A DNA stretch of 64,000 nucleotides. It comes from a virus. Taxonomy: Duplodnaviria; Caudoviricetes. Below are positions 50,178-60,696 of this stretch, in pieces. How positions within the stretch are numbered: the first letter of the stretch is position 1; every line of letters starts with the position of its first letter. The DNA is taken from the IMG/VR virus record IMGVR_UViG_3300034062_006701; one strand, given 5' to 3'. A model generated the notes under the pieces. That model made no database searches. It was not told where the DNA came from and saw only the letters and a program-made list of their open reading frames with translations. The position numbers and the translations under genes are program-made.

Positions 50178-50251
50178 TGGTAGGAGATGACGGTAACGCT
50201 CCGCCGAATCCTGAGTGTAAATCAGGTGTTTTACTTTTAAACTAATCTCCC
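50178..50251 (-). tRNA. tRNA-Val(UAC), non-canonical T-loop AGCGTTA
   Basis: CCTGA-TT-TAC-AC-TCAGG; CCA encoded. Confidence 0.85.
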
Positions 50252-53838: not shown

Positions 53839-54603
53839 TCATGTTAAAGTACCTATTGAGGCTTGAGACTGTCTCTCATTTAATATTCTTTTATAGATGG
53901 TTTTAAGCACCGGCGCCGTATTAAAATCTAACCAAAGCATCTTATACCCTTTATCGTCGCAGTATTTTTCTAACGCCAGTTGCTTATAAGGTATAGTTCT
54001 ATTATAAGGGTGCTCTGATTGTATATTCCACTTTTGCTTTACCTCGACAATGCACGTTTTACTATCTATCCTACAAATAAAATCAGGATTAAATGTTCGA
54101 TGTGACCCGTCTTCCCAATAATTTAAAATACTTATAAATCGCTCAATACGATTCGCACCTAATTCATCAATGAGATATACAATACCAGCTTTTTCTAAAT
54201 TTGAATCAACATCTATTACCACATCTTTATAATTAAATGTTTCTCTTAATGTAGAGAAATTACCGTGCTCTTTGAGATAATTTTGCCTATTAATAGAACG
54301 TAAATAGCTCGCACATACCTTACTACATGTCTTTTTTTCGTAACCAGCTTGTGCTATAAAAGTATCACCACACGTTACACAAACACAATCGATGTACGTC
54401 CTTGGCCTATATCCCGGTGATCCTGGAATATTTCGCTTTCTACCTTTGAGGGACCGAGAGATTTTTAATTTTGTTGCTTCTGAGCGCACTCCCCTGTTAT
54501 TAGCGCAATTGCGCGAACAATATAATAAAGGTTTTGTTTTACGAACAACCCTATCCTTACGCCAATCATCAACTATTTCTTCTTTACAAGTTATACATTT
54601 CAT
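53839..54603 (-). CDS. free-standing PD-(D/E)xK (TnsA-N-like) endonuclease with zinc fingers and a NUMOD3-like motif
   Basis: YCSRNC, RSEATKLKISRSLKG, CVTC/CSKVC, FNPDF...IVEVK. Confidence 0.8.
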   Translation of the reverse strand: MKCITCKEEIVDDWRKDRVVRKTKPLLYCSRNCANNRGVRSEATKLKISRSLKGRKRNIPGSPGYRPRTYIDCVCVTCGDTFIAQAGYEKKTCSKVCASYLRSINRQNYLKEHGNFSTLRETFNYKDVVIDVDSNLEKAGIVYLIDELGANRIERFISILNYWEDGSHRTFNPDFICRIDSKTCIVEVKQKWNIQSEHPYNRTIPYKQLALEKYCDDKGYKMLWLDFNTAPVLKTIYKRILNERQSQASIGTLT

Positions 54604-54652: not shown

Positions 54653-54907
54653 CTCCGGGGGCAGGATTTGAACCTGCGACCAATCGGTTACATCTACCCT
54701 TAAGTTTTAATTCCTTAAGGAATGGACTTTGTCTTCATCCTGTTAGGATGTGTCGTGTAAAGTCTCTACACTTGCCCGGTCTTTCGACCTGCTAGCTCGG
54801 CGTTAGCATTTCAGCTTTCACCGACTTAGCGACATTTTTCAATCAACATTACTGCTGAAAGCTGCAACTTAATACAGCCGACCGCTCTACCGCTGAGCTA
54901 CCCCGGA
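54653..54907 (-). tRNA. tRNA-Asn(GUU) split by a group I intron (exons 54907-54874 and 54690-54653)
   Basis: joined exons give a canonical cloverleaf with GTCGG-CT-GT/T-AA-CCGAT and G73. Confidence 0.92.
54691..54873 (-). ncRNA. 183-nt group I intron
   Basis: P1 with U.G at the 5' splice site, P10, P3, P7 core (AGAGACU / AAGACAAAGUCC), P8, P9, terminal G. Confidence 0.9.
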
Positions 54908-54959: not shown

Positions 54960-55054
54960 TGGAAGTGGGTATGGGAATCGAACCCATGCTCGTCCCTCAT
55001 CTAGGGAACACAGATTATAAGTCTGTCGGTGCTATCCAGTTACACTAACCCACC
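54960..55054 (-). tRNA. tRNA with UAU (Ile) anticodon and a long variable arm
   Basis: ACAGA-CT-TAT-AA-TCTGT; ~22-nt arm with TCCCT/AGGGA stem; U73; CCA. Confidence 0.82.
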
Positions 55055-60609: not shown

Positions 60610-60696
60610 AAGAGGTGGAGGGATTCGAACCCCCGAGACCGGTTATGGTCTGGCGATTTAGTAAATCGCTCTCGTCGACCGCTTGAGTACACCTCC
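60610..60696 (-). tRNA. tRNA-Ser(ACU)
   Basis: GCGAT-TT-ACT-AA-ATCGC; AGACC/GGTCT variable arm; no CCA. Confidence 0.88.

Follow-up and report, generated by a model that had tools for sequence, protein, structure and literature searches.

A compact group I intron within the anticodon of a phage tRNA-Asn(GUU) gene

We identified a tRNA-Asn(GUU) gene at 54653-54907 (minus strand) of the window (the whole 64,000-nt stretch of phage DNA analyzed here), which is split by an insert of 183 nt (54873-54691) that separates anticodon positions 35 and 36. The insert is a group I intron; its pairings, its E-value against the Rfam model RF00028, its folding-energy z-score and the covariation among its homologues all lie far beyond chance. 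We consider that the locus is most probably (probability of about 0.88) a tRNA-Asn(GUU) gene in working order, belonging to a large freshwater phage and carrying a mobile, ORF-less group I intron of the class 'Asn.4Ug'. Splicing of this tRNA-Asn is predicted from sequence.

The two exons of the gene are as follows.

54874..54907, minus strand: 5' exon of tRNA-Asn, 34 nt, tRNA positions 1-35, ending C32 U33 G34 U35 (minus-strand read, ARAGORN intron mode); letters UCCGGGG UA GCUC AGCGGUA GAGC G GUCGG CUGU, then the 183-nt insert.
54653..54690, minus strand: 3' exon of tRNA-Asn, 38 nt, from U36 to discriminator G73, without encoded CCA (minus-strand read); letters UAA CCGAU UGGUC GCAGG UUCAAAU CCUGC CCCCGGA G.

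Joining the exons in silico yielded a 72-nt product called tRNA-Asn(gtt) by ARAGORN, with a perfect cloverleaf, a seven-pair acceptor stem, the anticodon G34 U35 U36, and G73 at 54653. The ligated junction is predicted to read GGCUGUUAACCG, and the resulting anticodon loop, CUGUUAA, is ordinary for tRNA-Asn. The identity elements of AsnRS are G34, U35 and U36 together with discriminator G73; the spliced product carries all of them on its cloverleaf, as a functional tRNA-Asn does. The final base of the 5' exon is U and that of the insert is G, and sliding the boundary alters the product. When introns were allowed, ARAGORN called the genomic DNA as tRNA-Asn(gtt)i(35,183). Both the split at 35/36 by a 183-nt insert and the recovery of a canonical tRNA-Asn with a recreated GUU anticodon upon its removal, as proposed in the initial annotation, were thus confirmed in silico. 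The same annotation expected the usual tRNA scans to skip this gene, and indeed neither default ARAGORN nor the Rfam tRNA model at its gathering score detected it in the whole window. It is the sole tRNA-Asn among the 12 tRNA genes of the window.

Other tRNAs of the window also drew attention. A tRNA at 50181-50251 (minus strand) was matched by Rfam (52.2 bits) and missed by ARAGORN, and a tRNA-Ser with the rare anticodon ACU lies at 60610-60696 (minus strand). At 54960-55054 (minus strand), 52 nt upstream of the tRNA-Asn, is a 95-nt tRNA whose anticodon is UAU; it has a long variable arm of class II type, and its CCA is encoded. Class II tRNAs in bacteria are those for Leu, Ser and Tyr. This tRNA(UAU) is 92-97% conserved in the IMG/VR loci L047, L460 and L369, where substitutions in the stems of the acceptor and the variable arm are compensatory, and blastn against GenBank phages found no match to it.

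We mapped the structural elements of the insert as listed below.

54691..54873, minus strand: group I intron, 183 nt, first base A (54873), terminal G (54691); RF00028, and 170.2 bits with the family model R1.
54861..54878, minus strand: P1, exon G31-U35 plus intron A1 (54878-54873) paired with the guide UGCAGC (54866-54861), with a U35.G wobble at the 5' splice site.
54865..54868, minus strand: P10 guide segment GUUG, pairing with the 3' exon UAAC (54690-54687; U36-C39).
54843..54858, minus strand: P2 hairpin UCAGCA-GUAA-UGUUGA; GNRA loop in 17/17 aligned relatives, 6/6 pairs covary.
54830..54834, minus strand: 5' strand of P3, UGUCG, with its partner CGACA at 54755-54751; 5/5 pairs change on both sides, 100% paired.
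54797..54824, minus strand: P4 (UCGGUG/CGCCGA) around P5 (AGC/GCU, 3 bp, 6-nt loop).
54770..54796, minus strand: P6 and P6a (GGUC-GAAA-GACC hairpin); 6/8 pairs change on both sides.
54761..54766, minus strand: 5' strand of P7, G(A)GACU with a bulged A, and its partner AGUCC at 54728-54724; pseudoknot, guanosine-binding helix.
54736..54750, minus strand: P8 hairpin CAUCCU-AAC-AGGAUG (helix mapping, covariation).
54729..54735, minus strand: J8/7, AAGACAA, the conserved catalytic-core joiner (RF00028 alignment, relatives' alignment).
54692..54723, minus strand: P9.0 (AU/AU) and P9 (CCUUAAG/CUUAAGG, 7 bp, 9-nt loop).

All of the pairings claimed at the outset were found, namely P1 as GCUGU(A)/(U)GCAGC, P10 as UAAC/GUUG, the GUAA-capped P2, P3, P7, P8 and P9, together with the terminal G; the GAAA-capped hairpin that had been labeled P6 is likewise present, and is more exactly P6a. 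The insert therefore has what characterizes a group I intron: a P1 with a U.G pair formed by an internal guide, a terminal guanosine (54691), and a core of P3-P8 with the P3/P7 pseudoknot, the bulged P7 and J8/7. P7 was invariant in 17/17 relatives and agrees with the RF00028 consensus AGACU...AGUC, and P9 covaries inside the closest clade and is poorly aligned across the wider family. With its GNRA-capped P2 and its lack of large peripheral domains, the intron would be compatible with subgroup IC3. No ORF of at least 50 aa, and hence no intron-encoded endonuclease, was found inside the 183-nt intron. When the 255-nt precursor was folded without constraints, the minimum-energy structure contained the acceptor, D and T arms as well as P1, P2, P4, P5, P6a, P8 and P9, and its folding energy was well below that of shuffled sequences (z = -6.6).

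The initial annotation had proposed RF00028 as a check on its reading. In a local Rfam scan of the insert, the model matched over model positions 1-253 at 44.9 bits, which is highly significant (E 2.4e-10), yet below the curated gathering score of 50 bits. Because of this 5-bit shortfall, an RF00028 scan of the whole window at gathering thresholds gave no match. According to a survey of tRNA introns (Williams, bioRxiv 2020, doi 10.1101/2020.01.27.920355), RF00028 comprises 12 seed sequences, none of them bacterial, and far lower cut-offs were applied there to tRNA introns.

We gathered homologues by two exact-word scans of IMG/VR using conserved core words, followed by nhmmer. In a MAFFT alignment of 17 introns, 87.2% of the cells in paired positions were paired, compared with 30-37% when the 3' partners were slid, and 27 pairs changed on both sides, a count matched by 0/500 shuffles. 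P2, P3, P5, P6a and P8 covary among the 17 relatives, and P4 and P7 show no variation. The compensatory changes in the other helices, combined with the invariance of P4, P7 and J8/7, therefore point to selection on the fold. The covariance model R1, built from this alignment, found 96 copies in 100 fetched stretches (at most four per contig); among 91 distinct model-aligned copies, 85.1% of cells were paired versus 32-41% for slid partners, a figure biased towards the structure because the alignment was fitted to the model.

At least six further phage contigs of IMG/VR have a homologous intron at this tRNA-Asn site. In L032, L031, L026, L034, L010 and L220, a tRNA-Asn(GUU) is split at 35/36 with U at -1 and an intron-terminal G, and the acceptor stems of these contigs differ from one another; all listed introns of the family that had a clean tRNA call end in G. 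One degenerate copy (L008, 416-591) lies in a tRNA-like gene whose T arm is degenerate and which ARAGORN left uncalled. The guide varies in step with the anticodon loop of each host tRNA: it is GCAG where the loop has CUGU (Asn, Tyr), GGAG where it has CUCU (anticodons CUA, CUU), and GGAA where it has UUUU. P10 shows a compensatory change in L010 (AUUA with UAAU) and is just 2 bp in three of the closest relatives. Intron size among the relatives reaches down to approximately 173 nt. The host tRNAs assigned confidently are Asn, Tyr, Lys and an amber-suppressor-type CUA; the list of hosts is partial and some single calls are unreliable, since script-based typing gave no tRNA for 59/96 model matches and looser typing was too noisy.

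A 16-mer scan of genome contigs returned mostly chance matches, as expected at that length, and related introns in only six bacterial MAG contigs, 0/6 of them in a tRNA-Asn. Searching the precursor against GenBank phages with blastn gave no match at E 1e-5 and only short matches at E 1, one of which is a protein-gene intron of Bacillus phage PJN02, and a second of which led to a different tRNA intron in the E. coli phages Turkey5 and TH47. Turkey5 is a cultured E. coli phage of 351 kb; there, a group I intron without annotation (L476, PQ471516.1 288996-289309; RF00028 95.1 bits) lies in a tRNA(CAU) gene that is itself unannotated and is situated between a tRNA-Ser and an HNH homing endonuclease gene.

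In five phage contigs (L258:799-981, L269:3228-3409, L212:339-522, L199:7590-7774 and L259:5568-5751), mini-introns of the window intron's family (173-176 nt) split an amber-suppressor-type tRNA(CUA) at 35/36, so that the CUA anticodon would exist only after splicing. Two to four copies of the family were found within a few kb per contig in L187 (1189-5721), L186, L180, L191 and L216, presumably in adjacent tRNA genes. A C rather than U apparently precedes the 5' splice site in L224:7794-8009 (Leu CAA, 34/35, exons judged by eye), and in L187:1189-1377 and L203:2103-2291 (Thr CGU, typed by script alone). A splicing test of such a type, 'Leu.3Cg', is called for in Williams 2020 (doi 10.1101/2020.01.27.920355).

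We evaluated the mobility of the intron from its distribution, its phylogeny and its neighbors. At least 120 IMG/VR contigs contain a tRNA-Asn without interruption whose 20-nt junction is identical, and two related tRNA clusters, L369 and L460, share the tRNA(UAU) and contain the tRNA-Asn without an intron; the intron-less alleles for which the initial annotation proposed to look are thus present among relatives, as the mobility of such an element would lead one to expect. In an intron-core tree from which the guide sequence was left out, the window grouped with L032, L031, L026 and L034 (100/99 support), a single origin of all eight phage Asn introns was rejected (p-AU 0.0185), and the L220-Asn intron grouped with a tRNA-Leu(UAA) intron (95/94). 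Based on this rejection and on the L220/Leu(UAA) pairing, intron cores appear to have moved between tRNA species. Next to the gene, we found the following reading frame.

53839..54603, minus strand: 254-aa ORF, candidate free-standing homing endonuclease, 50 nt downstream of the tRNA.

This ORF encodes two zinc-finger-like modules of the form CxxC...CSxxC and, at the C-terminus, a PD...EVK motif (identified by eye), and weakly matches the DNA-binding part of phrog_1271 'HNH endonuclease' (E 1.9e-5) as well as NUMOD3. A 47%-identical homologue (L034:1906-2865) abuts the L034 Asn intron in the opposite orientation, and the ORFs in the same place in L032 (6613-7353) and L031 (10861-11535) match 'homing endonuclease' families (E 7e-18 and 8e-14). 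Homing-endonuclease-like ORFs therefore lie directly downstream of the intron-bearing tRNA-Asn, in either orientation, in four of the five closest relatives (window, L034, L032 and L031). These downstream ORFs would fit trans-acting homing of the intron by a candidate endonuclease. Because of the presence/absence pattern of the intron and its nuclease neighbors, we regard it as a selfish mobile element, a reading that fits all the data.

Two features of these neighboring ORFs were observed in addition. The four nuclease-like ORFs combine two types of C-terminal nuclease with common zinc-finger-like N-terminal modules, and 11 nt of the tRNA T-arm (AGGUUCAAAUC) are repeated immediately ahead of the start codon of the 254-aa ORF.

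Other products encoded in the window are the two subunits of ribonucleotide reductase, nicotinamide phosphoribosyltransferase, PRPP synthetase and a protein resembling a tail fibre that has an Mtd_N domain; many small ORFs gave no matches. The stretch was present in 20 lake or freshwater DNA runs of 16 studies, and the source sample may be among these. Judging from this gene content and occurrence, the carrier is probably a large freshwater phage. Relatives of the upstream 263-aa protein were found at 80 loci (at most 52% identity), none of which has a tRNA-Asn or intron nearby, and a scan for promoters and terminators beside the gene gave nothing above shuffled expectation.

We examined RNA data for traces of the locus. 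No RNA dataset was listed as containing the 1-kb stretch, and small shares of it were present in four freshwater metatranscriptomes (contigs only). Two RNA contigs join 54690 to 54874, an exact 183-nt skip, with matching sides of 29 and 21 nt and flanks unlike the window. We rejected these contigs as spliced product of the window gene; since their flanks differ, they are best read as another organism's uninterrupted tRNA-Asn, and they confirm the location of the empty site. Other RNA contigs, approximately 91% identical, carry related unspliced introns, which could represent either precursor RNA or contaminating DNA.

Taken together, these features suggest the following course of events. In the precursor, as the sequence shows, the guide GCAGC pairs with G31-U35 to form P1, placing U35.G at the cleavage site, and the P3-P9 core folds round the guanosine pocket of P7. 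Free guanosine would attack after U35 in the first step; in the second, GUUG would hold U36-C39 in P10 while the terminal G (54691) enters the pocket and the exons are joined. The predicted products are a tRNA with a recreated GUU anticodon and a free 183-nt intron, and host enzymes would complete the tRNA by end trimming and CCA addition. At the DNA level, the intron would behave as a selfish element, present or absent in otherwise similar phage tRNA clusters. Because it has no nuclease gene of its own, it would depend for its spread on help, probably from the downstream free-standing homing-endonuclease-like gene, or from recombination.

We weighed this reading against explanations in which the intron is real and its operation differs. 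It is unlikely that splicing at physiological Mg2+ requires a protein helper, such as a phage or host maturase or chaperone, to replace peripheral contacts lost as the intron shrank. The intron falls 22 nt short of that of Azoarcus (205 nt), its P5 has only 3 bp, its P9 loop is not a GNRA tetraloop in the closest clade, and the gene of an uncharacterized protein adjoins it; however, the tertiary docking elements remain, with a GNRA loop on P2 in 17/17 relatives and GAAA on P6a, small bacterial tRNA introns such as that of Azoarcus self-splice efficiently (PMC13168695), and the neighboring ORF bears no maturase mark. The initial annotation had further suggested that splicing times the supply of the tRNA or shields it from anticodon nucleases. 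Co-option of this kind, whereby the intron delays or gates the phage tRNA-Asn or protects its anticodon loop from host nucleases, seems to us decidedly unlikely. Phage tRNAs have been proposed to make up for host tRNAs that anticodon nucleases have destroyed (PMC10264068), and the same family splits the suppressor-type tRNA(CUA), where timing could matter. Nevertheless, the mature tRNA, with its ordinary CUGUUAA loop, would be as exposed as any tRNA-Asn, related tRNA clusters lack the intron, and no regulatory element was found. Occurrence in many unrelated tRNA types, with endonuclease-like genes adjoining the closest Asn copies, is what a selfish element would show; the suggestion is thus unsupported, and the presence/absence pattern and nuclease neighbors favor the selfish reading instead.

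That the locus is a decayed, inactive intron in a tRNA-Asn pseudogene, leaving the phage to use the tRNA-Asn of its host, is highly improbable. The RF00028 score below the gathering threshold and the copy in a degenerate tRNA-like gene (L008, 416-591) would agree with decay, whereas the core helices are all intact, P4, P7 and J8/7 are invariant with compensatory changes elsewhere, the exons form a flawless cloverleaf, and five close copies in different phage contigs retain both exons and intron. An assembly chimera of a tRNA gene and an unrelated ribozyme is hardly credible: the stretch occurs whole in contigs of many independent lake metagenomes, and at least six further contigs show this arrangement with boundaries that match. 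On the assembly, which the initial annotation proposed to check, recurrence of the stretch across the 20 lake and freshwater DNA runs speaks against an artefact. We thus retain the reading of a working tRNA-Asn(GUU) gene with a mobile group I intron.

The mechanism is ordinary and the site is known; what distinguishes the intron is its phage tRNA host, of which no description was found, and its unusually small size (183 vs 205 nt). Since both the kind of intron and the insertion site were already known, the locus extends the catalogue and introduces no new mechanism. Together with its many IMG/VR relatives, it indicates that phage tRNA genes are targets of group I introns too. Because standard tRNA finders miss the gene, the tRNA set of this phage is undercounted, and by extension those of many metagenomic phages; the same is true of Turkey5, in which the intron-split tRNA(CAU) is unannotated. 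As a natural and evidently constrained core of 183 nt, with relatives near 173 nt, the intron would be a convenient minimal ribozyme system if self-splicing, and the Turkey5 intron provides a case of a group I intron in a phage tRNA that is ready for the bench. More tentatively, and possibly though by no means probably, the family represents a phage-borne radiation of ORF-less minimal group I introns (approximately 172-200 nt, below the 205 nt of Azoarcus), which would have passed repeatedly from the anticodon loop of one tRNA to that of another as their guide (4-6 nt) was retargeted, and which would be mobilized in trans by free-standing nucleases next to the tRNA genes. If true, self-splicing ribozymes would have a major habitat, so far undescribed, in phage tRNA clusters, and splicing would be needed for some phage tRNAs, recoding suppressors among them, to exist at all.

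The closest known class is Asn.4Ug. Williams 2020 (doi 10.1101/2020.01.27.920355) increased the number of classes of group I introns in bacterial tRNAs from four (Leu.3Ug, Arg.5Ug, fMet.2Ug and Ile2.5Ug, marked IC3) to 21, with 'Pam37.Asn.4Ug' as a seed sequence; the survey covers bacterial and archaeal assemblies only, and the word 'phage' is absent from it. Because Pam37.Asn.4Ug is in this seed alignment, the insertion site is not new, and the mention of reported 35/36 Asn introns in the initial annotation was right in substance. Like this class, the window intron lies at anticodon-loop position 4 (35/36) of a tRNA-Asn, with U at -1 and a 3'-terminal G (CUGU/a...g/UAA). P2-P6 of the seed are quite unlike those of the window intron and apparently longer (by eye), and the window differs in its phage-like carrier and the absence of an ORF. 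The Azoarcus tRNA-Ile intron, the benchmark compact self-splicer (PMC13168695), is likewise a small, ORF-less intron of the anticodon loop with a GNRA P2, short P5/P6a, P9 and P9.0, and neither intron has large peripheral domains. The Azoarcus intron sits after position 36 of tRNA-Ile2, whereas that of the window sits at 35/36 of tRNA-Asn, has a non-GNRA P9 loop and is 22 nt shorter (183 nt vs 205 nt, PMC13168695), the size order claimed in the initial annotation.

The cyanobacterial and plastid tRNA-Leu(UAA) introns and the Synechocystis tRNA-fMet intron are also group I introns in bacterial-type anticodon loops, inserted at 34/35 and 33/34, respectively, as opposed to 35/36 in the window tRNA-Asn. 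The Synechocystis intron encodes the PD-(D/E)xK endonuclease I-Ssp6803I (Bonocora and Shub 2001, as cited in PMC3984707), and this case links an intron to a nuclease targeting the anticodon region of a tRNA. Its nuclease gene is internal to the intron, whereas the nuclease-like gene of the window is free-standing and just downstream. Group I introns of phage protein genes include T4 td, nrdB and sunY and those of SPO1, Twort and Bastille, and in 'collaborative homing' free-standing endonucleases target intron sites, for example in cyanophage psbA. These introns are also phage-borne and self-splicing and spread by means of homing endonucleases; that of the window sits instead in a tRNA gene. 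All phage introns known to Hausner, Hafez and Edgell in 2014 were in protein genes, despite the many phage tRNA genes, and full-text literature searches found no paper after that review on group I introns within the tRNA genes of phages. Devoto et al. 2019 (PMC6784885) reported 'enigmatic' introns in Lak megaphage tRNAs as the first phage tRNA introns. As in the window, these lie within phage tRNA genes and were missed by bacterial tRNA settings; whereas the Lak introns, one of them tRNA-shaped, were left unclassified (PMC6784885), the intron of the window is a group I ribozyme.
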